Assembly (NCBI GenBank): GCA_020849665.1
Contig: JADLFX010000020.1
Location: 1 to 53,579 of the forward strand
DNA: 53,579 nucleotides
Reading direction: 5' to 3'
DNA from: Planctomycetota bacterium
GTDB taxonomy: Bacteria > Planctomycetota > UBA1135 > UBA2386
A program made the translations under genes and the position numbers. Positions 5,492 to 52,365 of the stretch are shown here, piece after piece; position 1 is the stretch's first letter, and each line of letters begins with the position of its first letter. Below the pieces are notes generated by a model. That model ran no database searches. It was given only the letters and a program-made list of their open reading frames with translations, and had not been told where the DNA came from.

Positions 5492-5498
5492 CGTCGCG

Positions 5499-6809: not shown

Positions 6810-6861
6810 GGCGGGCACGGGACGCACGGACCAGATGGTATGGCCGCGCCTGCGGGCCGGC

Positions 6862-8514
6862 TCAGCCTTCGACGAGGAAGCTGTGCGCCACCGGCACGCG
6901 CCGGCCGTCCCAGCAGCGCTCGGTGACCCGCAGGGTGGGCGCGTACTGGTAGCGCTTGAACTCGTTCTTCTGCATGCGCGCGAAGATCCCGGCCACCTCG
7001 CCCGGCGCCATCCCGGTGCGCCGCGCCACCTCCGACACCGGAACATCCTCCTCCACCAGGAGGCGCAGCACGGGATCGAGCACGTCATAGGGCGGCAGGC
7101 TGTCGGTGGTGAGCTGCCCCGGACGCAGCTCGGGCGAGGGCGGCTTGGCGAGGATGTGCGCGGGGATCCGCTCGCCTTCGCGGTTCAGCCAGCGCGCCAG
7201 CTCGTACACCTCGGTCTTCCACAGGTCGCCGAGCACCGCGAGGGCGCCGCACATGTCGCCGTAGAGGGTACAGAAGCCCATCGCCGCCTCGCTCTTGTTG
7301 CCGGTGGCGAGCAGGAGGTGGCCGAACTTGTTCGAGTAGGCCATCAGGAGCACGCCACGGATCCGCGCCTGCACGTTCTCCTCGGTGACGTCGAAGGGCC
7401 GGTCGCCGAAGAGCGGCTGCAGCGTGCCAGTGACCGCCTCGTAGGCGTCCTGGATCGGCAGCTGCTCCAGGCGGATGCCGAGGTTGCGGCACAGGGCCTC
7501 GGCGTCGGCGAGCGAATGCGGGGTCGAGAACGACGAGGGCAGCGCCAACCCCACCACGTTCCCGGGCCCGAGCGCGTCGACCGCCAGCGCGGCGGTGACC
7601 GCCGAGTCGATGCCGCCGGAGACACCCAGTACGGCGCGCGCGAAGCCGAACTTGGCGAAGTAGTCGCGCAGCCCGCGCACCAGCGCCCGCCAGCTCATCT
7701 CGACGCGTTCGGGGAACACGGGCTCGAGCTGCCACGGCGCGCCGGTGTCCACCACGAAGAGCCCCTCCTCGAAGAGCACCGGCGTGAACGCGAACCCCTC
7801 CGGCTTCACGGCCATCGAGCCGCCGTCGAAGAGCAGGCCGACGTTGCCGCCGACGAGGTTGCAGTACAGGAAGGGCACCCGGTGGCGGCGCGCGGCCGCG
7901 CGCAGCATGTCCGCACGCAACCGCTCCTTGCCGTGGTTCCACGGGCTGGCGGAGAGGTTCACGACCAGCTCGGCGCCGGCCTGCACCAGCCGCTCGACCG
8001 GATCGACCGGGTAGAGGCGCTGGCGGAAGAAGTGCGCGTCGTTCCAGCCGTCCTCGCACACCGCCAGACCGACCTTGCGCCCTGCGACCGTGAGCAGGTT
8101 CTCCTGCGGCCGGGTCCAGGGCTCGAAGTAGCGGCTCTCGTCGAAGATGTCGTACGTGGGCAGCAGGCACTTGCGTGCCACGACGCGTGCGAGCCCGTCC
8201 TCCACCAGCGCCACGGCGTTGCAGAGCGGCCGGCCGCCGATCTTGCGCCGTTCGTTGGCGGCGAGGCAGCCGACCAGCACGGGCAGGTCGGGGGGCAGGT
8301 CGCCGGTCAGTTCCTGCAGGGCGCGCTCGTGCGCGGCCAGGAAGCCCGGACGCAGCAGCAGGTCCTCGGGCGGATAGCCGCACAGCGCCAGCTCCGGGGT
8401 GACCACGAGGTCCGCGCCCTGCCGCCGGGCCTCGTGCGCCGCCTTGGCGATCGTGCGCCGGTTGCCGGCGAAGTCGCCGACGGTGGTGTCGATCTGGGCC
8501 AGCGCGATCCGCAC
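6862..8514 (-). CDS. nadE: Glutamine-dependent NAD+ synthetase.
   Basis: N-terminal CN-hydrolase (nitrilase) domain plus C-terminal NAD synthetase domain with the PP-loop SGGIDS. 550 aa. GTG start. Confidence 0.9.
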   Translation of the reverse strand: MRIALAQIDTTVGDFAGNRRTIAKAAHEARRQGADLVVTPELALCGYPPEDLLLRPGFLAAHERALQELTGDLPPDLPVLVGCLAANERRKIGGRPLCNAVALVEDGLARVVARKCLLPTYDIFDESRYFEPWTRPQENLLTVAGRKVGLAVCEDGWNDAHFFRQRLYPVDPVERLVQAGAELVVNLSASPWNHGKERLRADMLRAAARRHRVPFLYCNLVGGNVGLLFDGGSMAVKPEGFAFTPVLFEEGLFVVDTGAPWQLEPVFPERVEMSWRALVRGLRDYFAKFGFARAVLGVSGGIDSAVTAALAVDALGPGNVVGLALPSSFSTPHSLADAEALCRNLGIRLEQLPIQDAYEAVTGTLQPLFGDRPFDVTEENVQARIRGVLLMAYSNKFGHLLLATGNKSEAAMGFCTLYGDMCGALAVLGDLWKTEVYELARWLNREGERIPAHILAKPPSPELRPGQLTTDSLPPYDVLDPVLRLLVEEDVPVSEVARRTGMAPGEVAGIFARMQKNEFKRYQYAPTLRVTERCWDGRRVPVAHSFLVEG

Positions 8515-23209: not shown

Positions 23210-23274
23210 CGGGGCAGGAAGGTTGCGGGAGGCGGTCCGCCCTGGCAAGGGGGCGCGGGGGCTAGGATGCCGCC

Positions 23275-23892
23275 GTGGACCGCGACCCTCCCATGGAGGC
23301 GCTCGACCTCACCCAGCGCCAGCTGCGCTCGGCGCAGGACGGCGACCGGAGCGCGCTGGAGGCGCTCTTCGCGCGCTACCTGCCAAGAGTGCGGGCGATG
23401 GTGGCCGCGCGGATGGGTCGCACGCTGCGCGGCCTCGCCGACCTCGACGACCTGGTGCAGGAGACGCTGCAGGACGCCCTGCTCGGCCTGCGCCAGATCG
23501 ACCAGCGCAACGAGGGGCTCTTCGCCCACTGGCTGGCACGCTGCGTCGAGAACAACCTGCGGGACCTCCTGCGTCGCGGCCAGGCGGCCAAGCGGGGCGG
23601 CGGCAAGGCGCACGCCTTCGCGGACCTGGAGCAGAGCCTGTCGGAGTCGCTCTTTCCCGGCCGCGAACTCTCGGTGAGCCAGGTGGTGCAGGGCCGCGAA
23701 CTCGAGGAGCGGGTCGAGGCCGGGATGCTGCGGCTCGGCGCGCGCTACCGCGAGGTGATCGTGCTGCGCGTGCATGGCGGCCTCGGCTTCCGCGAGATAG
23801 CGGAGGTGATGGGCCTGCCCAGCGAGAACACGGCGAACGTGCTCTTCCTGCGCGCCCGCCAGCGGCTGCGCGAGCTCCTGGAGCCCGGTTAG
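23275..23892 (+). CDS. ECF-type sigma-70 family RNA polymerase sigma factor.
   Basis: Region 2 (LDDLVQETLQDALLGLRQ) and region 4 HTH (YREVIVLRVHGGLGFREIAEVMGLPSENTANVLFLRARQRLRELL). 205 aa. Confidence 0.8.
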   Translation: MDRDPPMEALDLTQRQLRSAQDGDRSALEALFARYLPRVRAMVAARMGRTLRGLADLDDLVQETLQDALLGLRQIDQRNEGLFAHWLARCVENNLRDLLRRGQAAKRGGGKAHAFADLEQSLSESLFPGRELSVSQVVQGRELEERVEAGMLRLGARYREVIVLRVHGGLGFREIAEVMGLPSENTANVLFLRARQRLRELLEPG

Positions 23893-28586: not shown

Positions 28587-29534
28587 CTACGAGGCCGCCC
28601 GCGCGGCGATCCCCCGGCCCGGCGCGAGGTACTCGCCCATCGGCAGCACGGTGAAGCGCGCCCGCAGCGCCGTCAGGGTGTCCTCCAGGATCGCCTCCTT
28701 GCGCGCCCAGGCGACATCCATCCCGGGGAAGAAGTCGAGGTCGCGGTGTTCGCCGTTGCCGACGAAGTCGAGCGAGTGCAGCAGGTAGCTCGGCGCCACG
28801 CCGCGCAGCCGGCAGAGGCCGAGGCCGAGGCGCAGGTAGAACGACGCCAGGCCGCGCGAGAAGCGCGACAGCCACACCACGTAGCTCGTGTGGAACGGCG
28901 TGCGCAGGAGCGGGATCGTGGTCACCGGCAGCGACCACAGCTCGGGGGCTCCGGGATAGCGGCTCGGCCGCAGGCTCTGGAACGCGTCCTTGATCCCGCC
29001 GTACATCGCCTTGCGTTGCTCCCGCTCCGCCTTGCTCATCTTCGAGTGGAAGAAGTAGTAGGCGCGGCACAGCGGGCCCAGGAAGGTCGGCAGCGGCGAG
29101 CCGTCGTAGTGGAATCCGCCCTCGCGCAGGATCGCGGGCAGCCGGGGCGACCACGCGAATCCCGGCGCGCGGAATCCCTTGGGTCGCACGCCGAGGCGTG
29201 CCTCGATCAAGTCCGCGGCGCGCAGCACCTCCTCGCGCATGCGCTCGGGCTGCAGCGCGGCGAAGGTCGGTTCGTGGTGCCAGGAGTGGCAGCCGATCTC
29301 GTGGCCGCGCTCCACGAAGGGCCGGATCGCGGCGACCCGGTCGGGATGCTCCAGGTCGGCGGCGATCACGAAGAGCGTGAGGCGCAGCCCGTGCCGGTCG
29401 AGCATCGCCAGCAACCGCGCGCACACCTCCGGGACGACGCTGCGCGTGGCCTCCCAGCCGGGCCGGCCGGCGGCGCGCATGTAGGTCCACGCGTCGTCGA
29501 GGTCGAGCGAGAGCGTGGCCGGCGGCAGGCTCAT
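28587..29534 (-). CDS. Polysaccharide deacetylase (NodB-homology, CE4-like).
   Basis: Start trimmed to MSLPPATLSLDLDDAWTYM. The LTLFVIAADLEHPD...GHEIGCHSWHHE segment contains the Asp and His motifs of NodB-type deacetylases. Overlaps the upstream gene by 4 nt. Confidence 0.75.
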   Translation of the reverse strand: MSLPPATLSLDLDDAWTYMRAAGRPGWEATRSVVPEVCARLLAMLDRHGLRLTLFVIAADLEHPDRVAAIRPFVERGHEIGCHSWHHEPTFAALQPERMREEVLRAADLIEARLGVRPKGFRAPGFAWSPRLPAILREGGFHYDGSPLPTFLGPLCRAYYFFHSKMSKAEREQRKAMYGGIKDAFQSLRPSRYPGAPELWSLPVTTIPLLRTPFHTSYVVWLSRFSRGLASFYLRLGLGLCRLRGVAPSYLLHSLDFVGNGEHRDLDFFPGMDVAWARKEAILEDTLTALRARFTVLPMGEYLAPGRGIAARAAS

Positions 29535-30868
29535 CTGGCCAGCACCTCGCGCCGGGTGTGCGGACCGCCCAACTGCCGGGCCAGGAAGCGTTCCGCCGCA
29601 CGGCGCGCCAGCCCCACGCAGTCGCTGTTGTTCAGGATGCAGGCCGAGAGCTGCGCGTTGTTGACCACGTACACCTTGCCGGGCACGACCTCGCGCGGCG
29701 GCCGGACCGGCGCCGCGCCCACGCGCGGGATCGGCTGGATGAAGCGCGCCCGCTGCACGCTCTGGTGCAGCAGCCAGTCGCCGCCCGCCGCCGGGCGGAT
29801 GCGGCGCAGGTCGCGCAGCGCCGCCTCGGCGATCGCCGCGTCGTCCTGGCGGTGGATCGGATCCCCCGTGGGCGCGTAGCGGGGCAGGTAGACCAGCGCG
29901 TGGCCGTTGGTCTCCGCGCTGGCGTCGACCACGTTCGTGGTCTCGATCACGCCGGTGAGGCAGGAGCGGTCGTCCACCACGTTGAGGATGTAGTTGGCCG
30001 AGAGCGGCCGGCGCCCCACGGCCACGGTGCAGGCCACGCCCAGGTAGGCGGTGTCCTGCAGGCGCAGGCGCTCGGCGTCGGGCAGCATCGGCAGCAGCTC
30101 GGCGACCATCGGGTTGTGCATCGTGAGGAACACCGTGTCGGCCGGGAACGTGCCCGCGGGCGTGTCCACCTCCACGCCGTCGCGCACCAGGCGCACCGAC
30201 TCGACCTTGGAGCCCTCCACCACGCGCACGCCGAGCGCGGCGAGGCGCTCCAGCATCCGCCCGAGGATCGTGCGATAGCCGCCGCGCACGTAGCCGAAGG
30301 TGTCGCCGGAACCTCCCGCCTTGCGGGCCGAGGCAAGGCGCCGGATGGTCGCGAAGATGAAGCGCGCCGACACCCATTCCGCGGCGCTGCCGAGCTTGGC
30401 ACGCAGCAGGTGGCGCCAGAAGTCCCGGTAGCCGGGTTCGCCGCACCACGCACGCAGCCATTCGGCGGAGGTCTGGCTGTCGAGCCTGTCGTCCTCGAAG
30501 GCCCGCGGGGCACGCAGCGCCATCCAGCCGATCCGGAGCTTGGCGGAGAGCGGCAGCGTGGGCAGCCGCAACAGGTCGAGCGCGGTGTTCAGCGGACAGA
30601 GTCGGTCGCCGATCCAGCAGCCCTGCTGCGTGCGCCGCCACACCAGCTCGCCACCCAGCCCCAGCTCCTCGAGGAGTTGCAGCAGCTCGCGGTCGGAGGG
30701 CAGGATGACGTGGTAGAAGCGGTCCCAGACGAAGTCGTGGAAGCGTTGGGACAAGGACAGGCCGCCCGCGCTCTGCGCGTCGAGCACCGTCACCTGCAGC
30801 CCGCCCTGCGCCAGCTGGTGGGCGAGGGCGAGTCCGGTCATCCCGGCTCCCGCGACGACGGCCCTCAT
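29531..30868 (-). CDS. FAD-dependent oxidoreductase (amine-oxidase / protoporphyrinogen-oxidase-like fold).
   Basis: Start trimmed to MRAVVAGAGMTGLALAHQLAQGGLQVTVLDAQ (Rossmann GxGxxG dinucleotide-binding motif). 445 aa. Confidence 0.7.
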   Translation of the reverse strand: MRAVVAGAGMTGLALAHQLAQGGLQVTVLDAQSAGGLSLSQRFHDFVWDRFYHVILPSDRELLQLLEELGLGGELVWRRTQQGCWIGDRLCPLNTALDLLRLPTLPLSAKLRIGWMALRAPRAFEDDRLDSQTSAEWLRAWCGEPGYRDFWRHLLRAKLGSAAEWVSARFIFATIRRLASARKAGGSGDTFGYVRGGYRTILGRMLERLAALGVRVVEGSKVESVRLVRDGVEVDTPAGTFPADTVFLTMHNPMVAELLPMLPDAERLRLQDTAYLGVACTVAVGRRPLSANYILNVVDDRSCLTGVIETTNVVDASAETNGHALVYLPRYAPTGDPIHRQDDAAIAEAALRDLRRIRPAAGGDWLLHQSVQRARFIQPIPRVGAAPVRPPREVVPGKVYVVNNAQLSACILNNSDCVGLARRAAERFLARQLGGPHTRREVLAR

Positions 30869-31491
30869 GGCGTTCGGTGCGGGAGCTCCACCACGCGGTG
30901 GCACTTCTCGCACGGGAACCGACCGCGCACCGGCAGCTCCGCATCGGCCCCCAGCTTGAGGACCGGGTGGCCGCAGCGGCAGACGAGGCCCCGCACGCGT
31001 GCCGGGTTGCCGATCGCCAGGCCGTGCGGCGGCACGTCCCTCGTGACCACGCTGCCCATGCCGATCATCGAGAACTCGCCCAGCGTCACGCCCGGTCCGA
31101 TCACCGCGCCGGCGCCGATCGTCGTGCCGCGCCGGACCGTGGTCGTGAGCGTCTCCTCGGTCGGATCCGAGGTCTGCAGATCCTGCAGGTCCGGGTCGGT
31201 CGAGCGCGGGAAGCGGTCGTTGGTGAACACGGTGTGCGCCGAGATCATCACGCCGTCCTCGATCGTGACGCCGGCGCAGATGTAGACGACGGCGTTGATC
31301 TTCACCAGATCGCCGATCACCACTTCGTAGGCGACGTAGGTCTTCTCGCCGATGATGCACTTGGCGCCGATGCGGGCGTTCTTGCGGATGTGGACGTTGT
31401 CCCACACGCTCGTGCCCGGCCCCAGCACCACGCCGTCCTCGACCAGTGCGGTCGGGTGCACGCGCGGCGGCGGCAGCTCCTGCGGCTTCAC
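30865..31491 (-). CDS. Left-handed beta-helix (hexapeptide-repeat) sugar N-acetyltransferase, WbpD/PglD-like.
   Basis: GTG start 2 nt after the upstream stop. Hexapeptide repeats (IGAKCIIGEKTYVAYEVVIGDLVKINAVVYICAGVTIEDGVMIS...). About 208 aa. Confidence 0.75.
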   Translation of the reverse strand: MKPQELPPPRVHPTALVEDGVVLGPGTSVWDNVHIRKNARIGAKCIIGEKTYVAYEVVIGDLVKINAVVYICAGVTIEDGVMISAHTVFTNDRFPRSTDPDLQDLQTSDPTEETLTTTVRRGTTIGAGAVIGPGVTLGEFSMIGMGSVVTRDVPPHGLAIGNPARVRGLVCRCGHPVLKLGADAELPVRGRFPCEKCHRVVELPHRTP

Positions 31492-31493
31492 GG

Positions 31494-32480
31494 TCACACC
31501 TCCTGCCACTGGCGCTCGCGCGCCGAGCGGTAGGCGGCCTCGATCACGCGCACCGAGAGGATCGCGTCCTCGGCGGTGATCACCGGCGCCTCGGCGCCGC
31601 GGATGTTGCGCGCGAAGTTGCGCAGCTGGTTGCGGAACGCCGCCTTCTTGTCGTAGCCGGAGCCGAACACGGTCCACTCGGCGTCGCCGTCGCGCTTGTA
31701 GCGCGACACCTTCCAGCCCACTTCGATCGTGCCCTTCGCACCGTACAGACGCACGAAGCTGGGCACCTCCTTGTGGACGCTCCACGAGAGGTCGATCGCG
31801 CCCACCGCGCCGGCCTCGGTCTCCAGGAGCAGGCGGCAGGTGTCCTCGACCTCGATCGGCTGCACGTTGCGGGCGAACTGCGCCTGCACCCAGGCGATCG
31901 GCCCACACAGGTAGCGGGCCACGTCGACCGAGTGGCTGCCATTGTCGATCAGCACGCCCCCGCCGGACACCTCGCGCCGGCTGTTCCAGCGCTTGGTCAT
32001 GTCCACGCGTGCGCAGAACACGTTCTCGAAGAGGAGCAGGTCGCCGATGGTGCCCTCGTTGAGCAGGGCCCTGGCCTTGGCCATGTCGTCGACGAAGCGG
32101 AACTTCGACCCCATCATCAGCGTGCGCCCCGTGGTCGCCGCGGCCGCGAGCATGCGCTCCGCGGCCCGCGCCGTGGTCGTGAGCGGCTTCTCGCACAGCA
32201 CGTGCTTGCCGGCGCGCAGCAGCTGCACCGCCAGCTCCTCGTGGGTCACGGGCGGGGTCAGCACTAGGGCCGCGTCGATGCCGCCCTCGTCGAGCATCGC
32301 GCCGAGCGTGGGAAACGGCGGCACGCCCGTCTGGCGTGCCACGGCGTCGCGGCGTGCGGCGTCGACGTCGACCACGCCGGCGAGCTGCAGCTCCGCCACC
32401 TCGCCGATGGCGCCCAGGTAGGACGCGGCGATGCCGCCGCAGCCCACCACGCCCACGCGGATCCTGGCCTGGCCGGTCAC
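31494..32480 (-). CDS. Gfo/Idh/MocA-family NAD(P)-dependent sugar oxidoreductase (WbpB/GnnA-like).
   Basis: GTG start overlapping the upstream TGA. N-terminal Rossmann IRVGVVGCGGIAASYLGAIG...GKHVLCEKPL. The Arg/Gly-rich 5' extension of the ORF (31494-34274) is a different-frame artefact. Confidence 0.8.
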   Translation of the reverse strand: MTGQARIRVGVVGCGGIAASYLGAIGEVAELQLAGVVDVDAARRDAVARQTGVPPFPTLGAMLDEGGIDAALVLTPPVTHEELAVQLLRAGKHVLCEKPLTTTARAAERMLAAAATTGRTLMMGSKFRFVDDMAKARALLNEGTIGDLLLFENVFCARVDMTKRWNSRREVSGGGVLIDNGSHSVDVARYLCGPIAWVQAQFARNVQPIEVEDTCRLLLETEAGAVGAIDLSWSVHKEVPSFVRLYGAKGTIEVGWKVSRYKRDGDAEWTVFGSGYDKKAAFRNQLRNFARNIRGAEAPVITAEDAILSVRVIEAAYRSARERQWQEV

Positions 32481-34834
32481 CGTACCACCGCCTTCGCGGG
32501 CGTCAGGCGCGCCGCTTCCTCCCGGATCACGCGGGTCACGAAGTCCACGTGCTCCTGGGTGTAGAGCTCGTTGATCGGCAGCACGATCACCCGGTCGAGG
32601 GCCTGGGTCGTGCCGGGGTAGTCCTTGCGCTGGAACACCGGCTGCGGCCGGATCCGACCGTCGGCGCCGCGCAGCGGCAGTGCCGAGACCGGCGACGCGT
32701 TCCAGTCGTGGAAGAGCTGGCACTCGAACGCCGGCTTCTGGATGTAGCGGGGCACGCAGAACACGCCGCGTTCCTTCATCTTCTTGCCGAGTTCCACCGC
32801 GCCGCCGGGCACGACCGCGGGGTCGACCATCAGCGCGTACTTCCACCACGAGTGCTTCACCCCGGCCGGCACCTGCGGCAGGGTCAGGCCCGGGACGCCC
32901 TGCAGGCCCGCGGTGATCGCGGCGGCCACGTCGCGGCGGCGCTGCACCACCCACTCGACCTTGTCGAGCTGCGCCAGCGCCACGGCGCCCTGCAGCTCGG
33001 TGAGCCGGTAGTTGAGCGCGGGGAAGTAGTGGTCGGGCTTGGGATCGCCGTAGCCCCAGGCCTTGTTCACGAACAGGAACACGTTGCGGGCCAGGGTGTC
33101 GTCGTTGGTGAGCACGATGCCGCCCTCGCCGGTGGTCATGTGCTTGCCCTGCTGCAGGGAGAACGAGGCGATCTCGCTCAGCGTGCCCACCCTGCCGATC
33201 CGGTCCTCGGCGTAGAACGCCTGGGCCACGTCCTCGATCACCGGGATGCCCTTGCTCCGCGCGAGAGCACGCACCGGCGCCATGTCGACCGGCAGGCCGA
33301 AGAGGTGGGTCACCACGATCGCCTTCGTGCGCTCGCCGATCCTGGCCGCGATCGTCTCGGCGGTGACGTTCAGGGTCCACGGGTCGACGTCTGCGAAGAT
33401 CGGCACGCAGCCCTCGTAGAGGATCGGCGTGAGCGCCCCCATGTCGGTGATCGGCGTGGTGATCACCTCGTCGCCGCCCTTCAGCTTCAGCGCCGCCAGC
33501 GCGCAGTGGAACGCGGCCGACCCCGACGCGCAGGCGATCGCGTGCTTCACGCCGTAGCGTTTGGCGAACTCCTTCTCGAAGCGGGCCACGAACGTGCCCT
33601 TCGTGGAGTTCAGCGTGCCGCTGCGGATCGCGCGGGCCGCCATGAGGATCTCGTGGTCGCCCATCTCGCGGCCGGTCCAGTCGCCGTCGGAGGGCAGAAG
33701 GACCGCGCCGGGCGCCGCGGCCGGCGCCGCGGGACGCTCGGCTTCCTGCCGGCGCCGCGGCCCCTTCGCGAGCACGGCGAGGATCCGGCTCGCGCTCGTT
33801 CCGTCGCCGTACGGGTGCTGCCAGGTGCGGGACCCGGCCAACACCTGGCCGATGCCACGCTCCGCGCCCTCGGGGCGCACGCCGGCCAGCAGGTTCGCGC
33901 CGCAGTCGATGGTCTCTGGGCGCTCGGTGCTGGTACGCAGCGTGACGCAGGGGGTGCCGAGGATGCACGCCTCCTCCTGCACTCCGCCCGAGTCGGTGAC
34001 GACCACGCGGGCCTGCTCCTGCAGCGCCAGGCTCTCGGCCAAGCCGACCGGTGCGACCGCCGAGAACGAGCCCGGCAGGCCGACTCCGTGCGCCTGCATC
34101 TGCCGCGCCGTCCGCGGGTGCACCGGGAAGAGCACGCGCAGGCCCTGGGCCGCCGCGGCGCGGTGCACGCCGTCCAGCAGGCCGCGCAAGAGCGCGGGGT
34201 CGTCGACGTTCTCCTCGCGGTGCAGGGTCAGGTAGACGAACTCCTTCCGGCGCAGCTCGAAGCGGCCCAGGCACTGGGCCGCGGCGGCGGCGGTGGGGCG
34301 CAGCCCCGCCACGACGTCGGCGATGGTGTTGCCGACCACGTGGCAGGCCTCCATCGGCAGGTTCTCGCGGCGCAGGAGGTCGCGCTGCAGCTCGGTCGGG
34401 CAGAACAGCGCCTCGGCGAGGTGGTCGACCTGGATGCGGTTCTTCTCCTCCTGCATGCGGCGGTCGAACGAGCGCAGGCCGGCCTCGACGTGCGCCACCG
34501 GGATGCCGAGCTTGTCGGCGGCGAGGGCGCCGGCCAGCGTGGAGTTGGTGTCGCCCTGCACGACCACCCAGTCGGGCCGCTCCGCCGCCAGGACCTCGCC
34601 CAGCCGCTCGATCATCCGCCCCACCTGCGCTGCGGGGGCGAGCGAGCCGATGCCGAGGTTGTGCTGCGGCTGGGCGAGCGCCAGCTCGGCGAAGAAGCGC
34701 GCGTCCATCTCCGGGCTGTAGTGCTGCCCGGTGTGGATCACGACCAGGGGAGTGCCCGCACCGGTGGCGGCGCGGATGAGGGGTGAGAGCTTGATGATCT
34801 CGGGGCGGGTGCCCAGGACGAAAGCGAGCTTCAT
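32477..34834 (-). CDS. Bifunctional fusion: UDP-N-acetylglucosamine 2-epimerase (WecB/WbpI-like) at the N-terminus, DegT/DnrJ/EryC1-family PLP sugar aminotransferase (WbpE/GnnB-like) at the C-terminus.
   Basis: Start trimmed to MKLAFVLGTRPEIIKLSPLI...HTGQHYSPEMD (WecB). After an approximately 25-aa Pro/Ala linker: MGDHEILMAARAIRSGTLNSTKGTFVARFEKEFAKRYGVKHAIACASGSAAFHCAL (DegT). Single uninterrupted ORF of about 785 aa. Confidence 0.75.
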   Translation of the reverse strand: MKLAFVLGTRPEIIKLSPLIRAATGAGTPLVVIHTGQHYSPEMDARFFAELALAQPQHNLGIGSLAPAAQVGRMIERLGEVLAAERPDWVVVQGDTNSTLAGALAADKLGIPVAHVEAGLRSFDRRMQEEKNRIQVDHLAEALFCPTELQRDLLRRENLPMEACHVVGNTIADVVAGLRPTAAAAAQCLGRFELRRKEFVYLTLHREENVDDPALLRGLLDGVHRAAAAQGLRVLFPVHPRTARQMQAHGVGLPGSFSAVAPVGLAESLALQEQARVVVTDSGGVQEEACILGTPCVTLRTSTERPETIDCGANLLAGVRPEGAERGIGQVLAGSRTWQHPYGDGTSASRILAVLAKGPRRRQEAERPAAPAAAPGAVLLPSDGDWTGREMGDHEILMAARAIRSGTLNSTKGTFVARFEKEFAKRYGVKHAIACASGSAAFHCALAALKLKGGDEVITTPITDMGALTPILYEGCVPIFADVDPWTLNVTAETIAARIGERTKAIVVTHLFGLPVDMAPVRALARSKGIPVIEDVAQAFYAEDRIGRVGTLSEIASFSLQQGKHMTTGEGGIVLTNDDTLARNVFLFVNKAWGYGDPKPDHYFPALNYRLTELQGAVALAQLDKVEWVVQRRRDVAAAITAGLQGVPGLTLPQVPAGVKHSWWKYALMVDPAVVPGGAVELGKKMKERGVFCVPRYIQKPAFECQLFHDWNASPVSALPLRGADGRIRPQPVFQRKDYPGTTQALDRVIVLPINELYTQEHVDFVTRVIREEAARLTPAKAVVR

Positions 34835-35171
34835 GGCTGTGTTGCTGCGTCGTGCTGCCGTGGTGCTGGATCGGTCGTGGACGGTTGCGCGACCGCTCCC
34901 CTTGGAGCGGTGATCTGGCGGGACCGGGAACCGGGTGGTGCGGTGGCTGCGGCGCGGCTCGTTCCGGCCTCCCTCCCCCCGCAGAACCCTAGCCGTTGCC
35001 TCGGCAGGAATCGTCTGCAACTTGGTAGCAGAGGCGTCGCGTGGCGCCGCGGTGCGCCGAAACGAGGCAGGCACAGGGATCTCGTGCCGGGATCGGCGGC
35101 GGCGCGCCTCTGGCGTCGCCGCGCTGGCATCGCCGCTGCCGCGGCGGCGGCCGCCGCTGGCGACCGGCGGC

Positions 35172-37151
35172 TCATGGCGCCTGTGCGCCGCCGAGGCGGC
35201 GGATCTCTTCCAGACATTCCGGGTTCCGGAGCGCCACCAGATTGCGCACCGGGCGGTGGTGCAGCGCGTCGCTCGCGGCGTTCTCGCTGCGCTTGCCGTT
35301 GTGGGTCTGCGGCAGGGCCTGCACCTGGGCGATCACCGCGGGTACGTGCACCGGCGAGGCCCTGGTCTGCAGCTCCTTCTTGATCCGCAGCATGAGCGGC
35401 CGATCCAGCACCCTGCCCGGCGCGAGCACCACCAGCAGGACGAGGCGGGTGCCGCCCGGCTCGTCCGGCGCGTGCTGCGCCAGTGCCATGGCGTCCACGA
35501 TGCCCTCCATCGCCAGCACCACGGAGTAGAGCTCCGCGGGTCCGATGCGCACGCCGCGGATCTTCAGCGTGCCGTCGGAACGCCCGAGGATGCGTGCCGA
35601 GCCGCGCTCGTGCAGGGTCAGGAAGTCGCCATGGGTCCAGGCGCCCTCGTGCTGGCTGTAGTAGGTCTGCCGGTAGCGGGTGCCGTCGGGGTCGGCCAGG
35701 AACCCGACCGGGCGCGACGGGAACGGGTTCATGCACACCAGCTCGCCGGTGCCCGTGCGTCGGGCAACGCCGTCGGCCGCGGCCCGCACGTCCATGGCCA
35801 GGCTCACGCACTGGCTCTCCCCGGCCCACACGGGCAGTCCCGGGTGGCCCAGCACGAAGCAGCCGAGGATGTCGGTTCCACCGGAGATCGATTGCACCGG
35901 GACCCTGGCCACGTGCTCGTGGAGCCAGTGGAAGAGCCAGTCGTAGAGCACCGACCCGGTGCTCTGGATCGCGCGCAGCCGCGGCAGCGGCACGTCGCGG
36001 GCCGGATCGAGGCCGGCCTCCTTGAGGTACTGGACGTAGGCCGGACTGGTGCCGAACACCGTCACCGCCTCGCGCTGCAGCATGCGCAGCAGAGCGTCGG
36101 GCTGCGGCCAGGTCGGCGAGCCGTCGTAGAGCACGATCCGCGTGCCGCAGGCCAGGGCCGACACCAGCCAGTTCCACATCATCCAGCCGGCGGTGGTGTG
36201 GAAGTAGAGCGTGTCCGACGGGCCGAACCCGCTGTGCAGCCGGTGCTCCTTCTGGTGCTCCAGCAGGGTGCCGCCATGCCCGTGCACGATGCACTTCGGC
36301 CGCCCGGTGGTGCCCGACGAGAAGAGCACGAAGAGCGGGTGGTCGAAGGGGAAGCGCGGCCACCACGTGCTCGCCGCCAGCTCGCTGGCGGCGCCGCGCC
36401 GGCGCAGGGCGTCGAGCGTGTGCAAGGCCACGCCCGGCGGCGGGTCGCCGGTGAAACCGTCGCCGTCCAGGACCACCACCGCGCGCACGCTGGGCAGCGC
36501 GGCCAGCACGGCGCGCACCCGGTCCTCGAGTCCCTTGCGCGCGCCCTGGTACGCGTGATCGAAGTGCGCGAAGAGCACCACCGGCTCGATCTGCTGGAAG
36601 CGCGCCAGCACCGCCTCGACGCCCAGGTCCGGCGCCACTGCGGACCACGCCGCGCCCAGCGCCGTGGCCGCGAGGCAGGCCAGCACGGTCTCGCCCGCGT
36701 GCCGTGCGTAGGCCACCACGCGATCCCCGGAGCGCACGCCGATGGCCTGCAGTCCCCCGGCCAGCGCACGCGCCTGCTCGCGCAGGGCCCCACGCGTCCA
36801 GGCGCGGCGGCCACCGTTCTCGTCCACGGCCACCATCGCCTCGGCCGCGGCGTCGCCGGGCGTCACCGTGCGCAGCAGGTTCTCGGTCCAGTTGAGGCGC
36901 AGGCGGGGGAAGAAGCGCGCCTCGGCCACGCCGTCGCCCAGGCAGACCGGCTCGTGATCGCCCTCGCACAGGGTTCCGGACCAGTCCAGGAAGAGCCGCC
37001 AGAACGTCCGGTACTCCGCGCAGGCGAAGTCCTGGAACTCGCCCCAGGTCGCGAGGCGGCGACCGGTCCGGCGCGCACATTCGGCCTGGAAGACCGCCAT
37101 CTCGCTGCGCGCGGCCGCGGCCGGATCGGGAGTCCAGAGCGGCTCGCTCAT
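35172..37151 (-). CDS. Acetoacetyl-CoA-synthetase-family AMP-forming ligase.
   Basis: N-terminus MSEPLWTPDP... and HGHGGTLLEHQKEHRLHSGF match the AACS subfamily. AMP-binding core SSGTTGRPKCIVHGHGG. 659 aa. The start overlaps the carrier-protein stop. Confidence 0.8.
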   Translation of the reverse strand: MSEPLWTPDPAAAARSEMAVFQAECARRTGRRLATWGEFQDFACAEYRTFWRLFLDWSGTLCEGDHEPVCLGDGVAEARFFPRLRLNWTENLLRTVTPGDAAAEAMVAVDENGGRRAWTRGALREQARALAGGLQAIGVRSGDRVVAYARHAGETVLACLAATALGAAWSAVAPDLGVEAVLARFQQIEPVVLFAHFDHAYQGARKGLEDRVRAVLAALPSVRAVVVLDGDGFTGDPPPGVALHTLDALRRRGAASELAASTWWPRFPFDHPLFVLFSSGTTGRPKCIVHGHGGTLLEHQKEHRLHSGFGPSDTLYFHTTAGWMMWNWLVSALACGTRIVLYDGSPTWPQPDALLRMLQREAVTVFGTSPAYVQYLKEAGLDPARDVPLPRLRAIQSTGSVLYDWLFHWLHEHVARVPVQSISGGTDILGCFVLGHPGLPVWAGESQCVSLAMDVRAAADGVARRTGTGELVCMNPFPSRPVGFLADPDGTRYRQTYYSQHEGAWTHGDFLTLHERGSARILGRSDGTLKIRGVRIGPAELYSVVLAMEGIVDAMALAQHAPDEPGGTRLVLLVVLAPGRVLDRPLMLRIKKELQTRASPVHVPAVIAQVQALPQTHNGKRSENAASDALHHRPVRNLVALRNPECLEEIRRLGGAQAP

Positions 37152-37438
37152 GGCCTCTTCCTGGCCGCGTAGCCAGGGTGCGCGCTGACGTAGCCGACGA
37201 TCTTCGCGAGCCCGTCGAAGTTGGCAGGCGTGAGGTCCTTGCGGTCGATCACGATGCCCAGGGTCTTCTCGAGGTGCAGGATCAGCTTCACGAACCCGAG
37301 GCTGTCCAGGATGCCGCTCTGCAGGAACGACCGGTCGTCGCTGCCGATCAGCTGCTCCGCCTCGCCGAAGTGGTAGTTGTCGTCGAGCCAGTCGATGACC
37401 AGCTTGCGCAGGGTGGGGTCGAGGGAGGCAGGCTGCAT
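37148..37438 (-). CDS. Small acyl/peptidyl carrier protein (DltC/ACP-like, phosphopantetheine attachment).
   Basis: 96 aa. LQSGILDSLGFVKLILHLE contains the DSL Ser motif for 4'-phosphopantetheine attachment. The Arg-rich 5' extension of the ORF (37148-38812) was rejected. Confidence 0.7.
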   Translation of the reverse strand: MQPASLDPTLRKLVIDWLDDNYHFGEAEQLIGSDDRSFLQSGILDSLGFVKLILHLEKTLGIVIDRKDLTPANFDGLAKIVGYVSAHPGYAARKRP

Positions 37439-37446
37439 GTCGGGAT

Positions 37447-38958
37447 TCAGAACTGGCGGTAGAGGAAGGTGCTCGCCCCCACTGGAACGACCACGGTCAG
37501 GGCGACGAGGGCCAGCCCCACCAGCACGCCCCGCACCGGCGCCGGCAGCTGGGTGATGCGCGTCCACAGCCCGCGGCAGGCGTCGAGTGCCACGAGGTGA
37601 TGGACGATCGGCAGGGCGAGGGCGAGCCCGAGGAACGTGGCCTGGGTCAGACCGTGCACCGGCACGCGCTGAGCGCCGGTACCGACGAAGCCGCCCAGGA
37701 ACGCGGCCGCGTCGCCGAGCGATGCCGCACGGAACGGGATCAGGGTCGACACGAAGAAGAGCTGGGTCAGGGCCCAGGCGGCGACCTGGTAGCCGCGACT
37801 CTTGCGGCGCTGGACCCAGACGCGGTCGCGACGGCAGAGGCCGCGGTACTGCTCGTCGAACGTGGCCTGCACGGTCATGCCCACGCCGTGCAGGAATCCC
37901 CAGAGCACGTAGCCGGTCATGGCCCCGGAGGCCGAGGCGTGCCACACCCCGGAGAGCACGAACACCAGGAGGAAGCCGGTGCGGATCCGGCCGCGCATCA
38001 GGCCGTGCCCGGCCGTGAGCGGCGTGAAGATGAAGTCGAAGAGCCAGCGGTTGAGCGTGATGTGCCAGCGGCGCCAGAACTCGGGCAGATTGCGGCTCAG
38101 GAACGGCACCGAGAAGTTCTCCGGCAGCTGGATGCCGAAGAGCCGGCCGGCGCCGATCGCCATCAGCGAGTAGCCGGCGAAGTCGGCGTAGATCTGCAGG
38201 GCGTTGGCGAACATGGCCAGGACGTGATCCGCCGGCGCGAACGTCCCTGGCGCGGCGAACACCGGATCCACCACCATGCGCCCGATGGTGTCGGCGGCGA
38301 ACGCCTTGAGCGCGAACCCGAGGAGCAGCTCGCCGGCACCGGTGCGGATGGCGGCGAAGTCGAGGCGCCGTGCCTGCGCGAGCTGCGGGAGCAGCTGGGC
38401 CGCACGCGAGATCGGCCCGGCGGTGAGCTGGGGGAAGAACGCCACGAAGAGCGCGAAGCGCAGCGGGTCGCGGCAGGCCGGCTCCCGGCCGTAGTACACG
38501 TCCACCGTGTAGCCGAGGCGCTGCAGCATCTGGAACGAGATGCCGAGCGGCAGGATCACGTGCAGCGGGCCGGTGGACGGCACGAAACCGAGCGTGCGCA
38601 GCAGGTCGGCGAACGGCTCCACGAAGAAACCCGCGTACTTGCAGAACGCGAGTCCGCCGATTCCCGCGCCCAGGGAGACCAGGAGCCAGGCGAGCCGGAC
38701 GCGCCGCGCGGCCCGCGCCTGCGGCGTCGTGTCCTCGGCCGCGGGGCGCGGCGTCGCCGCGAGGCGCAGGCCGACCCACCAGTCGAGCAGGGCGGTGACG
38801 AAGAGCAGCCACAGGAGGCGCGGATGCCAGCTGGCGTAGAACAGCGCGCTCGCCAGCAGCAGGAACCCGTTCTGCAGCCAGGCACGGCGCGGCAGGAGCC
38901 AGTGCAGGATCAGCACCAGCGGCAGGAAGAAGGCGAACTCGACCTCGACCAGGCTCAC
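37447..38958 (-). CDS. MBOAT-family membrane-bound O-acyltransferase (DltB/AlgI/PatA-like).
   Basis: 503 aa, polytopic. WHITLNRWLFDFIFTPL...GVWHASASGAMTGYVLWGFLHG carries the conserved MBOAT His region. Confidence 0.85.
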   Translation of the reverse strand: MSLVEVEFAFFLPLVLILHWLLPRRAWLQNGFLLLASALFYASWHPRLLWLLFVTALLDWWVGLRLAATPRPAAEDTTPQARAARRVRLAWLLVSLGAGIGGLAFCKYAGFFVEPFADLLRTLGFVPSTGPLHVILPLGISFQMLQRLGYTVDVYYGREPACRDPLRFALFVAFFPQLTAGPISRAAQLLPQLAQARRLDFAAIRTGAGELLLGFALKAFAADTIGRMVVDPVFAAPGTFAPADHVLAMFANALQIYADFAGYSLMAIGAGRLFGIQLPENFSVPFLSRNLPEFWRRWHITLNRWLFDFIFTPLTAGHGLMRGRIRTGFLLVFVLSGVWHASASGAMTGYVLWGFLHGVGMTVQATFDEQYRGLCRRDRVWVQRRKSRGYQVAAWALTQLFFVSTLIPFRAASLGDAAAFLGGFVGTGAQRVPVHGLTQATFLGLALALPIVHHLVALDACRGLWTRITQLPAPVRGVLVGLALVALTVVVPVGASTFLYRQF

Positions 38959-39013
38959 GGGGCCGCCTCCTCGGACGCGCCGGGAGAGCGTGCGGAGGAG
39001 ATCCTGGCGGGTC

Positions 39014-40057
39014 TCATCGCACCCGCTCCGAGGACGCGCCGTTGCGCAGGAACGCCAGCGGGCCCGCCAGTCCCAGGCGCGCGAACTTCGCGTCGCCTTC
39101 GGCCGTGAGATGGTCGCAGTCGGCGCCGAAGTCGGTGTCCAGGATCGGCGCCCACTGCGAGAGATCGACGAGCCGCGCGCCGTGTTCGGCGGCCACTCCG
39201 GCGGCGAGCGCGTGGAACCGCTCGAGCGTCGCCACGCCTGCCTGCGTGCGTTTGGCCGGCATCGTGGGGTAGAGCACGATGGTGACCTCCACGCCGCGGG
39301 CGCGCATGGTCGAGAGGATCGAGCGCCAGGCCCGCATCTGCTCCGCGTGCCCGAGGCCCCGGATCGACTCCTCCAGGAGCTGCGTCGACGCCTCGAGGCG
39401 AGCCGCCACCGCCTCGGGCCGGAGTTCCGGCCGGATCCGGCCGACCAGCGCGGCGCGCACCGAGTCGATCAAGGTGTGGAAGCCGCGATCCTGCACCAGC
39501 GCGAAGTCGTGGAAGAGGCGGCGCCAGCGCTTCTGCAGGTAGTTGCGGTTGAACTGGTTGATGCCGACCCGCGCGACGTCGGCCAGGAAATGATCGAGGG
39601 TCCAGCCCAGGGCCGGCAGGTTCGCGCCGGGGTCGCCCTCGCCGTAGGGCAGCGAGTCCCACCACTCGGTGACCAGCACGAAGTGCTGCAGGCGGGTGCG
39701 CTGGCGCCGCCCCGACGCGTCGGTCGCGTCCAGGACGGGCAGGATCCGGTTCTGGAGGATCCACTCGTAGACCGAGAGCTTGCCGTGCTCGACCGCCACC
39801 GCGGCCAGGTGCCGCTCGCCGCCGGTGAGGCGCGCGAGCTCGTCCTTCACGGCCCAGAACGCGCGGCCATAGCTGGAGCCGAGCACCAGCACGTGTGGAT
39901 CGCTGGCCTGCAGGTCGGCCATGCCCTCCTGCACCTCGGGAAGGTGCTGGGGCGGAGCGACCGGGCGTACGGCGAGGTCGACGCCCCAGAACACCAGGGC
40001 GGCGACCAGGACGACGACGGCGAGATCGCGTCCCGGCCTGGGCTCGGATGGCGACAT
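39014..40057 (-). CDS. N-terminally membrane-anchored SGNH/DltD/AlgJ-like acyltransferase partner protein.
   Basis: Start trimmed to MSPSEPRPGRDLAVVVLVAALVFWGV (TM anchor). C-terminal DCDHLTAEGDAKFA resembles SGNH block V (DxxH). Sits immediately upstream of the MBOAT. Confidence 0.55.
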   Translation of the reverse strand: MSPSEPRPGRDLAVVVLVAALVFWGVDLAVRPVAPPQHLPEVQEGMADLQASDPHVLVLGSSYGRAFWAVKDELARLTGGERHLAAVAVEHGKLSVYEWILQNRILPVLDATDASGRRQRTRLQHFVLVTEWWDSLPYGEGDPGANLPALGWTLDHFLADVARVGINQFNRNYLQKRWRRLFHDFALVQDRGFHTLIDSVRAALVGRIRPELRPEAVAARLEASTQLLEESIRGLGHAEQMRAWRSILSTMRARGVEVTIVLYPTMPAKRTQAGVATLERFHALAAGVAAEHGARLVDLSQWAPILDTDFGADCDHLTAEGDAKFARLGLAGPLAFLRNGASSERVR

Positions 40058-50962: not shown

Positions 50963-51075
50963 CGCGCCGCCGGTAGCTCGCGCCCGGGCGCGCACGCCAG
51001 GCGTGGCCCGGCGCGCGCGCGCGCCGTGCAGGGCACCCCGGCCGCGGGTATGACTGCGCGTTCCGGAGTCCTCTC

Positions 51076-52365
51076 ATGCGCATCCCGTTCGCCTGGTTCC
51101 TGGTCGCGTGCGCGGCGCTCCCCGCGCAGGAAGACAAGCCCAATACCCTCACCAAGGAGGAACAGGAGCAGGGCTTCCGCCTGCTCTTCGACGGCACCTC
51201 CCCGCGCGGCTGGCGCGGCTTCCGCAAGGCCGCCTTCCCCGAGAAGGGCTGGGTCGTGGAGGACGGTGCGCTCAAGGTGCAGGCCAGAGGTGGCGGCGGC
51301 GACCTGGTCCACACCGACGGCTACAGCCACTTCGACCTCCGCCTGCAGTGGAAGGTGAGCGCGGGCGCCAACAGCGGGGTCATGTACCGCGTGTCCGAGC
51401 GCGAGAACGCGCCGTGGCGCACCGGGCCCGAGTACCAGATCCTCGACGACGGTGGTCACCCCGACGGCAAGGACCCGCGCACTGCCGCGGGCTCGCTCTA
51501 CGCCCTGGTCGCCGGCAAGGACAAGACGCTCAAGCCGGTGGGCGAGTGGAACGACGCCCGCATCGTGGTCGACGGCCGGCGCGTCGAGCACTGGCTGAAC
51601 GGCCGCCAGCTCCTCGCCATCGACCTCGGCGGCGACGAGTGGAAGCGGCTGGTCGCGGCCAGCAAGTTCAAGGACATGCCCGGCTTCGGGCGCGAGCCCA
51701 GCGGCCTGATCTGCCTGCAGGATCACGGCGACGAGGTGTGGTTCCGCAGCATCCGGATCCGCGAGATCCCCGCACGCGAACGCGCCGCCGAGCCGATCGT
51801 GCTCTTCAACGGCAAGGACCTCAGCGGCTGGACGGCGCACCTGCCGGACGGCGCGCCGATGGCGGACGTGTGGTCGGTGAGCCGGGACGGAGAGCTGGTG
51901 TGCAAGGGCAGGCCGGCCGGCTACATCCGCACCGAGAAGGACTACACCAGCTTCATCCTGGAGCTGGAGTGGCGTTGGCCCGGCGAGCCCGGCAACAGCG
52001 GCGTGCTCTTCCGCATGCAGGGCCAGGACAAGGTGTGGCCCAAGAGCATCGAGGCGCAGCTGCAGTCCGGGAACGCAGGGGACTTCTGGAACATCGACGA
52101 CTTCGCCATGAAGGCCGCGCCCGAGCGGACCAAGGGGCGCAACACCAAGAAGACCCACGCCAGCGAGAAGCCCCCCGGCGAGTGGAACCGCTACCGCATC
52201 ACCGTCGACGGCCCGCGCGTGGTCCTGGAGGTGAACGGACAGGTCGTGAACGAGGCCAACGAGTGCGCGGTCCTGCCCGGCAAGGTCTGCCTGCAGTCGG
52301 AGGGCGCCGAGATCCACTTCCGCAACATCCGCCTCACGCCGCTGGAAGCATCCGCCGGGAAGTAG
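51076..52365 (+). CDS. Secreted protein with two tandem DUF1080 (3-keto-disaccharide hydrolase-like) domains.
   Basis: Signal peptide MRIPFAWFLVACAALPAQE. The GFRLLFDGTSPRGWRGF...LICLQDHGDEVWFRSIRIREI block appears twice (second copy IVLFNGKDLSGWTAH...VCLQSEGAEIHFRNIRLTPL). Confidence 0.8.
   Translation: MRIPFAWFLVACAALPAQEDKPNTLTKEEQEQGFRLLFDGTSPRGWRGFRKAAFPEKGWVVEDGALKVQARGGGGDLVHTDGYSHFDLRLQWKVSAGANSGVMYRVSERENAPWRTGPEYQILDDGGHPDGKDPRTAAGSLYALVAGKDKTLKPVGEWNDARIVVDGRRVEHWLNGRQLLAIDLGGDEWKRLVAASKFKDMPGFGREPSGLICLQDHGDEVWFRSIRIREIPARERAAEPIVLFNGKDLSGWTAHLPDGAPMADVWSVSRDGELVCKGRPAGYIRTEKDYTSFILELEWRWPGEPGNSGVLFRMQGQDKVWPKSIEAQLQSGNAGDFWNIDDFAMKAAPERTKGRNTKKTHASEKPPGEWNRYRITVDGPRVVLEVNGQVVNEANECAVLPGKVCLQSEGAEIHFRNIRLTPLEASAGK

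Follow-up and report, generated by a model that had tools for sequence, protein, structure and literature searches.

A predicted UDP-GlcNAc 2-epimerase fused to a DegT-family aminotransferase in an amino-sugar gene cassette of a Planctomycetota bacterium

The fusion gene and its cassette

The DNA analyzed here is a 53,579-nucleotide stretch from a Planctomycetota bacterium (contig JADLFX010000020.1 of assembly GCA_020849665.1, called "the window" below), and our subject is a single gene in it that encodes both a WecB-type uridine diphosphate N-acetylglucosamine (UDP-GlcNAc) 2-epimerase and a DegT-family sugar aminotransferase. The gene is an open reading frame (ORF) of 785 amino acids (AAs) which begins with an ATG at position 34834, closes with a TGA that ends at 32477, and has no internal stop codon (table 1). 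Its protein product matches the Pfam families Epimerase_2 (AAs 30–355, 328 bits against a cutoff of 30.6) and DegT_DnrJ_EryC1 (PF01041; AAs 393–711, 277 bits against a cutoff of 19.8). Between these two lies a Pro/Ala-rich linker of about 22 AAs that reads AKGPRRRQEAERPAAPAAAPGA.. and that we place at AAs ~357–378, because the motif which follows it, LPSD(G/Q)D..SGR (LPSDGD..GR in this protein), is the natural N-terminal end of proteins in this DegT subfamily, the unfused ones included. An AlphaFold2 model, made with a 30-sequence alignment as input and with a mean predicted local distance difference test (pLDDT) score of 88, has two confident domains (pLDDT mostly >90 in the epimerase domain) separated by residues 362–388, for which the pLDDT is below 56.

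Four more genes follow on the same strand, in the order Gfo/Idh/MocA-family (GFO) dehydrogenase, LbH acetyltransferase, FAD (flavin adenine dinucleotide)-dependent protein and polysaccharide deacetylase. Each of these genes can be read as overlapping the preceding one by four nucleotides (GTGA at 32480–32477 and 31497–31494, ATGA at 30868–30865 and 29534–29531), and overlaps at all four junctions imply translational coupling along the operon. The LbH gene could also start at a second GTG, 31491, directly after the GFO stop codon, and it is the GTG at 31497 that gives the overlap. The 337-nucleotide gap 5' of the fusion gene is probably the promoter region of this five-gene cassette.

Table 1. 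Features of the window discussed in the text
Feature	Position	Strand	Basis
Fusion ORF, 785 AAs: epimerase domain, linker, aminotransferase domain	32477..34834	-	ORF, domains, continuity of G+C content at third codon positions, independent assemblies
Non-hydrolysing UDP-GlcNAc 2-epimerase domain, N-terminal, AAs 1–356	33767..34834	-	TIGR00236, solved relatives, residue table
Pro/Ala-rich flexible interdomain linker, AAs ~357–378	33701..33766	-	Low pLDDT; boundary from LPSDGD motif
DegT-family pyridoxal phosphate sugar aminotransferase domain, C-terminal, AAs 379–785	32477..33700	-	PF01041; Lys564, Asp535
Gfo/Idh/MocA NAD-dependent sugar dehydrogenase, predicted 3-dehydrogenase	31494..32480	-	Domains; best solved relatives 3q2k, 3q2i
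LbH N-acetyltransferase, WlbB/QdtC-like, 3-amino-sugar class	30865..31497	-	Domains; solved relatives 3mqg/3mqh, 4mzu, QdtC
FAD-dependent amine-oxidase-fold protein, uncharacterised PRK07233 family	29531..30868	-	Pfam; NF005560, 343 bits against a cutoff of 252
Polysaccharide deacetylase, NodB fold, last cassette gene	28587..29534	-	Pfam PF01522; NCBIfam matches all below cutoff
Intergenic gap, 337 nucleotides, 5' of fusion ATG	34835..35171	-	Sequence; putative promoter region of cassette
Dlt-like acylation module, upstream	35172..40057	-	Domain results; gene calls from near-identical contig L010
Acetoacetate-CoA-ligase-family adenylating enzyme	35172–37151	-	Above NCBIfam cutoff
Small carrier protein	37148–37438	-	Domain results
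MBOAT protein	37447–38958	-	DltB model 153 bits, below cutoff
GDSL/SGNH-like protein	39014–40057	-	Domain results
Planctomycetota-typical genes noted in window	5499–6905, 50995–52365, 3524–5539, 23266–23892	-, +, -, +	

Authenticity of the fusion

The window has a G+C content of about 72%, so that open frames alone are little proof of anything; indeed, one alternative frame of the fusion gene is likewise free of stop codons. At such a composition long frames stay open by chance, and two genes might in principle have been merged by a stop codon or frameshift that was collapsed in the G+C-rich linker during sequencing or assembly. Against this, the G+C content at third codon positions (GC3) is 0.88–1.00 in every 40-codon block of the ORF and 0.93–0.95 over the linker; since it is high in every block, a single coding frame runs through the whole gene, junction included (the onset of high GC3 also favours the ATG at 34834 over an upstream GTG at 35074 as the start). 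Within the linker DNA no homopolymer run exceeds 4 nucleotides. In place of read mapping we compared independent assemblies: three Logan assemblies from separate sequencing runs hold the same 2358-nucleotide gene with its frame open, and they differ from the window by seven substitutions (four synonymous and three conservative) and by no insertion or deletion. Finally, the two-domain architecture is found in more than 100 protein clusters, and dozens of diverged homologues remain in frame in spite of linkers that differ in sequence and in length, 20–30 AAs in close relatives and 45–60 AAs in another group. With assemblies, GC3 and homologues in agreement, the artefact reading was discarded; we regard its chance of being correct as negligible.

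Thus the unbroken ORF, the full-length WecB-type epimerase and DegT enzyme in one polypeptide, the stop-free Pro/Ala-rich linker and the GTGA overlap with the next enzyme's start, all of which had been proposed in an earlier note on this DNA, are borne out, and neither half is catalytically degenerate, as the key residues described below are kept in both. It is very likely that this is a genuine fusion with both domains intact, and its protein, judged by its domains and residues, is probably a bifunctional two-domain enzyme.

The epimerase domain

The N-terminal half matches the curated model for non-hydrolysing WecB enzymes (TIGR00236, an equivalog) at 314.4 bits, well above the cutoff of 210.15, with AAs 1–355 aligned to model positions 1–362 of 366. 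Its best solved relative is the Methanocaldococcus jannaschii UDP-GlcNAc 2-epimerase (4neq, 322 bits), and it is closer to the Thermus thermophilus UDP-GlcNAc3NAcA 2-epimerase (273 bits) than to E. coli WecB (144 bits). The earlier note had raised the case of a hydrolysing, NeuC-type enzyme, which would release a free ManNAc-type sugar, and had called for a comparison with WecB and NeuC references. That comparison does not favour hydrolysis: the fold is shared, and the NeuC equivalog (TIGR03568) finds a partial match confined to AAs 2–207, but at 46.3 bits this match falls far short of the cutoff of 235.9, and every one of the best solved relatives is non-hydrolysing. The NeuC-type identity was therefore discarded on the equivalog scores, and we consider it extremely improbable.

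The catalytic residues of the E. coli enzyme are Lys15, Asp95, Glu117, Glu131 and His213, and a list of 14 conserved catalytic, UDP-binding and allosteric positions is available for this family (PMC10622841). All 14 are present in the window protein, whose key residues include Arg10, Lys15, Asp95, Glu117, Glu129, His205, Arg206, Ser282, Glu288, Arg300 and Glu304. In addition, the same study describes three positions that discriminate between substrates, at which the T. thermophilus UDP-GlcNAc3NAcA epimerase has Ala18, Tyr96 and Trp307, which make room for the 3-acetamido and carboxylate groups of its substrate, while UDP-GlcNAc epimerases have Leu/Met, His/Gln and an Arg that hydrogen bonds to the C3'-OH (PMC10622841). 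The window protein has Leu16, Gln93 and Arg305 at these positions, and Leu/Gln/Arg is also found in every fused or cassette-linked epimerase we examined. The Ala/Tyr/Trp substitutions of the WbpI/WlbD type are not present, although these discriminators come from a single structure. Because the 14 residues are kept and the discriminating positions are Leu16, Gln93 and Arg305, the domain resembles an active UDP-GlcNAc 2-epimerase and not a WbpI-type enzyme.

These residues also bear on the order of reactions. In a WbpI-like order, the GFO, DegT and LbH enzymes would convert UDP-GlcNAc(A) to UDP-GlcNAc3NAc(A) and the epimerase would act last to give the manno form, so that the fusion would link the second and fourth steps in a pathway of the Wbp/Wlb type. 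The gene set does parallel wlbA–D and wbpB, E, D and I, and the epimerase lies in the same branch as the T. thermophilus UDP-GlcNAc3NAcA enzyme (273 bits, against 144 for E. coli WecB). On the other hand, it has Leu/Gln/Arg, with the C3'-OH-binding Arg, in place of Ala18/Tyr96/Trp307, no solved enzyme is closer to it than the UDP-GlcNAc 2-epimerase of M. jannaschii, and no UDP-sugar 6-dehydrogenase of the WbpA/WecC type is found among the genes called in the window (it could sit elsewhere in the genome). We think the WbpI-like order unlikely.

A search with the epimerase half found only unfused relatives of about 50% identity, in haloarchaea, methanogens, Myxococcota, Gemmataceae and Pirellulales, and one match of 63% identity, which lies on a short contig; from this search we can name no recent source of the domain.

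The aminotransferase domain

Membership of the C-terminal half in PF01041 is indicated by its score, by the Schiff-base lysine Lys564 (encoded at 33143–33145) and by the cofactor-binding Asp535. Lys564 aligns with the lysine of perosamine synthase 3bn1; chain 3dr4, presumably a Lys-to-Ala mutant of perosamine synthase, has Ala at that site. Lys564, Asp535 and Gln538 are invariant over 30 homologues. Among solved enzymes the domain scores 173 bits with perosamine synthase, 130 with QdtB and 115 with WbpE (3nu7), so it is no closer to WbpE than to other DegT enzymes, and these scores do not support the comparison with WbpE in the earlier note. That it acts at C3' we infer from the partner enzymes only, and not from its own sequence.

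The partner enzymes and neighbouring genes

The best solved relatives of the GFO enzyme, 3q2k (117 bits) and 3q2i (98 bits), are presumably WlbA 3-dehydrogenases. A model for the archaeal UDP-GlcNAc 3-dehydrogenase gives a sub-threshold 116 bits, with a cutoff of 450. The LbH protein is nearest to 3mqg/3mqh (WlbB, 97.7 bits). According to a preprint, 3MQH (WlbB), 4MZU and QdtC are all 3-amino-sugar N-acetyltransferases. The two genes after the fusion, for the GFO enzyme and for the LbH acetyltransferase closest to WlbB, support a Wbp/Wlb-like pathway context. The C-terminus of the LbH protein (30865–31000, reverse strand) carries a Cys-rich CxC..CxxC tail, CRCGHPV...CEKCHRVV, that is like a small zinc ribbon; it may be conserved, and tblastn alignments of relatives run through it. 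No close solved relative of the FAD protein was found.

Upstream of the cassette, beyond the putative promoter region, lies a Dlt-like module with an adenylating enzyme, a small carrier protein, an MBOAT protein and a GDSL/SGNH-like protein. Its target for O- or N-acylation might be the glycan that the cassette produces; it is not beside the cassette in the relatives' loci we examined, and because this association is not conserved we keep the module out of the mechanism proposed below. The window also holds a fusion of ThuA with a 3-keto-disaccharide hydrolase (DUF1080), a protein with two DUF1080 stretches, a multi-haem cytochrome c and a PF07638-type extracytoplasmic function (ECF) sigma factor. 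Such Planctomycetota-typical genes agree with the taxonomic assignment of the closest homologues.

Distribution and evolution of the fusion

We collected the 120 best database homologues of the fusion protein, and a simple search finds an epimerase followed by a DegT domain in 98 of them; the remaining 22 also bear an N-terminal extension. The same fusion, for which the earlier note had asked that relatives be searched, is thus present in them. Its statement that the two enzymes are normally separate is correct for the characterised systems but fails for uncultured Planctomycetota, in which the fused form is common, so the fusion in the window is not a one-off. At this G+C content open upstream frames are unreliable, and for this reason the fusion status of loci was called with a hidden Markov model (HMM) of the N-terminal domain; by this measure the fused form occurs in about 21 of 80 species-representative loci, all of them in unclassified Planctomycetota-type metagenome-assembled genomes. 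Automatic annotation usually names only one half of such proteins, either "UDP-N-acetylglucosamine 2-epimerase" or "DegT family aminotransferase" (one Joint Genome Institute (JGI) entry names both), and no biochemical or structural description of an epimerase-aminotransferase fusion was found in the literature searched.

After those with truncated N-termini were set aside, 112 N-terminal domains were examined, and they fall into three classes. Class A, the window protein and 12 relatives, has a canonical epimerase of the archaeal/T. thermophilus-like branch. Class B (three proteins) is also canonical and is E. coli WecB-like. The other 96 domains form class C (among homologues P0014–P0120, and in loci L005, L007, L009, L013–L018 and others), which is degenerate: Pfam scores are 35–100 bits, and other residues take the place of the catalytic Asp, Lys, Glu and His. 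Class C nevertheless keeps the fold scaffold and the UDP-binding TD..Q..A..PC motif, and has newly conserved residues Cys12, Trp37, Arg118, Arg137 and Glu208 (T. thermophilus numbering). Pairwise identity in this class is 33% for the N-terminal domains and 70% for the attached DegT halves. To judge from its conserved positions, the class C domain seems to be a pseudoenzyme, or a domain put to a new use, and not the outcome of random decay.

The existence of class C suggests a further alternative, that the epimerase domain of the window protein too is mainly a non-catalytic scaffold (UDP-sugar-binding, allosteric or concerned with oligomerisation) whose residues have merely not yet been lost. 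Such a role would fit the retention of so many degenerate domains with the TD..Q..A..PC scaffold and the persistence of the cassette alongside them. However, the 14 functional positions are strictly kept in all 13 class A proteins, whose domains are only about 58% identical, which argues for purifying selection on catalysis and for retained catalysis in the window protein, and the window domain lies above the curated equivalog cutoff. We consider a scaffold role for the window domain quite improbable.

In neighbour-joining trees, which carry no support values, the DegT halves of classes A and C fall together in a single clade, while the class B DegT domains nest among unfused cassettes from several phyla and the class B epimerases group with those cassettes' own separate epimerases. 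Since different epimerase lineages have been joined to this DegT subfamily, there have been at least two independent fusions, and this in turn argues for selection for the linkage. Within the A+C clade the epimerase domain has decayed repeatedly. Two loci, L035 and L038, have a DegT protein that lies inside the fused clade but lacks the N-terminal domain, and nowhere in either locus is there an epimerase-like ORF, an apparent secondary loss of the fused domain.

The cassette in other phyla

Species-representative genomes were scanned and then searched by tblastn with the window cassette proteins. Loci of the relatives have the fusion gene, a GFO gene with an overlapping start and an LbH gene, often with the FAD protein gene next. 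The order DegT-GFO-LbH-FAD-deacetylase recurs in Pirellulales, Gemmatales, Planctomycetales, Cyanobacteria, Acidobacteriota, Myxococcota, Verrucomicrobiota, Rokubacteria and Proteobacteria (loci L040–L092), and in all of these multi-phylum cassettes the DegT gene is unfused. A separate epimerase gene is adjacent or within about 2 kb in roughly one-fifth of the loci examined (it is about 2 kb upstream in some ten of them). In four loci (L019, L020, L039 and L072), from Holophagae, Polyangiaceae, Methylococcales and HyVt-539, it is immediately upstream in the same frame with a gap of only tens of nucleotides, a pre-fusion state in which loss of one stop codon would give a class B-type fusion. 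No published account of the product of the cassette was found.

A possible pathway

The explanation that we favour, with moderate confidence, is that a competent epimerase fused to a DegT enzyme works within an amino-sugar cassette; a role in a 3-amino-sugar pathway seems to us probable to a similar degree. Whether the epimerase acts first is more evenly balanced, and what speaks for it is that, at the specificity positions, it has the residues found in enzymes whose substrates carry a free C3'-OH. On this explanation an epimerase gene would have become fused to the first gene (DegT) of a widely conserved amino-sugar cassette. The epimerase domain would interconvert UDP-GlcNAc and UDP-ManNAc, the translationally coupled GFO enzyme would oxidise C3', the DegT domain would transaminate the resulting 3-keto sugar, and the LbH enzyme would N-acetylate the new amine to give a UDP-2,3-diacetamido-2,3-dideoxy-hexose, probably manno-configured, which the FAD protein and the deacetylase would modify further. 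Both WecB epimerisation and 3-oxidation of the WbpB/WbpE type are unfavourable, and transamination pulls both forward. Tethering of the first and third activities, with the second coupled through the GTGA overlap, could give fixed stoichiometry and co-localisation. The earlier note had suggested that the fusion channels the aminotransferase and epimerase steps, which is doubtful: the fused activities are non-consecutive in either pathway order, so stoichiometry or complex assembly is the likelier reason for the fusion.

Several observations weigh against this explanation. The best solved relative of the DegT half, perosamine synthase, is a C4 aminotransferase. The step order that we predict depends on three specificity residues defined in one structural study, and the fusion history on trees of the kind described above. 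The substrates of the known WbpB and WlbA enzymes are gluco-configured uronic acids, and the genes called in the window include no WbpA/WecC 6-dehydrogenase. In this clade the cassette is mostly accompanied by an epimerase domain that is catalytically dead, and some relatives have no such domain, so epimerase activity is not essential to the cassette. Nor is the cassette always intact around the fusion, since the class A protein P0005 (L001/L002; 68% identical to the window protein) is flanked by a flippase-like gene and glycosyltransferase genes with no GFO or LbH gene nearby.

The window protein may be the still-active form of an old Planctomycetota fusion, in most of whose descendants the epimerase domain has become a conserved non-catalytic module on a sugar aminotransferase, set within an apparently undescribed multi-phylum six-gene pathway (epimerase, DegT, GFO, WlbB-like acetyltransferase, PRK07233 FAD protein and deacetylase) that leads to a 2,3-diamino-sugar derivative. 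We offer this joint reading tentatively, as somewhat more doubtful than probable. If it is true, the repeated independent fusions would point to a required physical complex between epimerase and aminotransferase. A fusion of non-consecutive steps offers a test of stoichiometry and complex assembly against channelling as the reason for gene fusions in nucleotide-sugar pathways. The group also presents a series from enzyme to pseudoenzyme, with active, degenerate and lost domains all on a constant partner, of which the window protein is an intact and directly expressible example. In any case, current automatic names hide half of the fusion protein, and the conserved multi-phylum cassette with its uncharacterised FAD protein deserves to be flagged.

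Comparison with known systems

Both enzyme families and the general logic of such pathways are already known, and the fused architecture is abundant in public metagenomes. As an epimerase, the N-terminal half is like the stand-alone WecB-type enzymes in that it passes the curated wecB model, keeps the functional residues and matches 4neq over its full length at 322 bits; the known enzymes, however, are about 360–390 AAs alone, whereas the window protein adds a C-terminal aminotransferase. GnnA and GnnB, which make UDP-GlcNAc3N for lipid A, are likewise a GFO and DegT pair that works at C3' of a non-uronic UDP-HexNAc, but no lpx genes adjoin the window cassette and its acyltransferase is small and WlbB-like; the papers that a GnnA/GnnB literature search returned were all about lipid A and did not touch on the cassette. 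From the archaeal UDP-GlcNAc 3-dehydrogenase the GFO enzyme of the window differs in its score, which is far below that family's cutoff (116 against 450 bits).

GNE, the animal bifunctional UDP-GlcNAc 2-epimerase/ManNAc kinase, also has an N-terminal Epimerase_2 domain, which is joined to an enzyme that acts later in its sugar pathway. It is an unrelated fusion; its epimerase is hydrolysing and its kinase acts on the immediate product.

A close parallel is the Wbp/Wlb pathway to UDP-ManNAc3NAcA (WbpA, B, E, D and I of Pseudomonas aeruginosa, WlbA–D of Bordetella, and the T. thermophilus system), in which the same GFO, DegT, LbH and non-hydrolysing 2-epimerase families are clustered. The window differs from it in five respects: no WbpA-type 6-dehydrogenase lies nearby, the DegT enzyme is not specifically WbpE-like, the epimerase has specificity residues of the UDP-GlcNAc type, epimerase and aminotransferase are one polypeptide, and the cassette adds two conserved genes, for a PRK07233 FAD protein and for a polysaccharide deacetylase.

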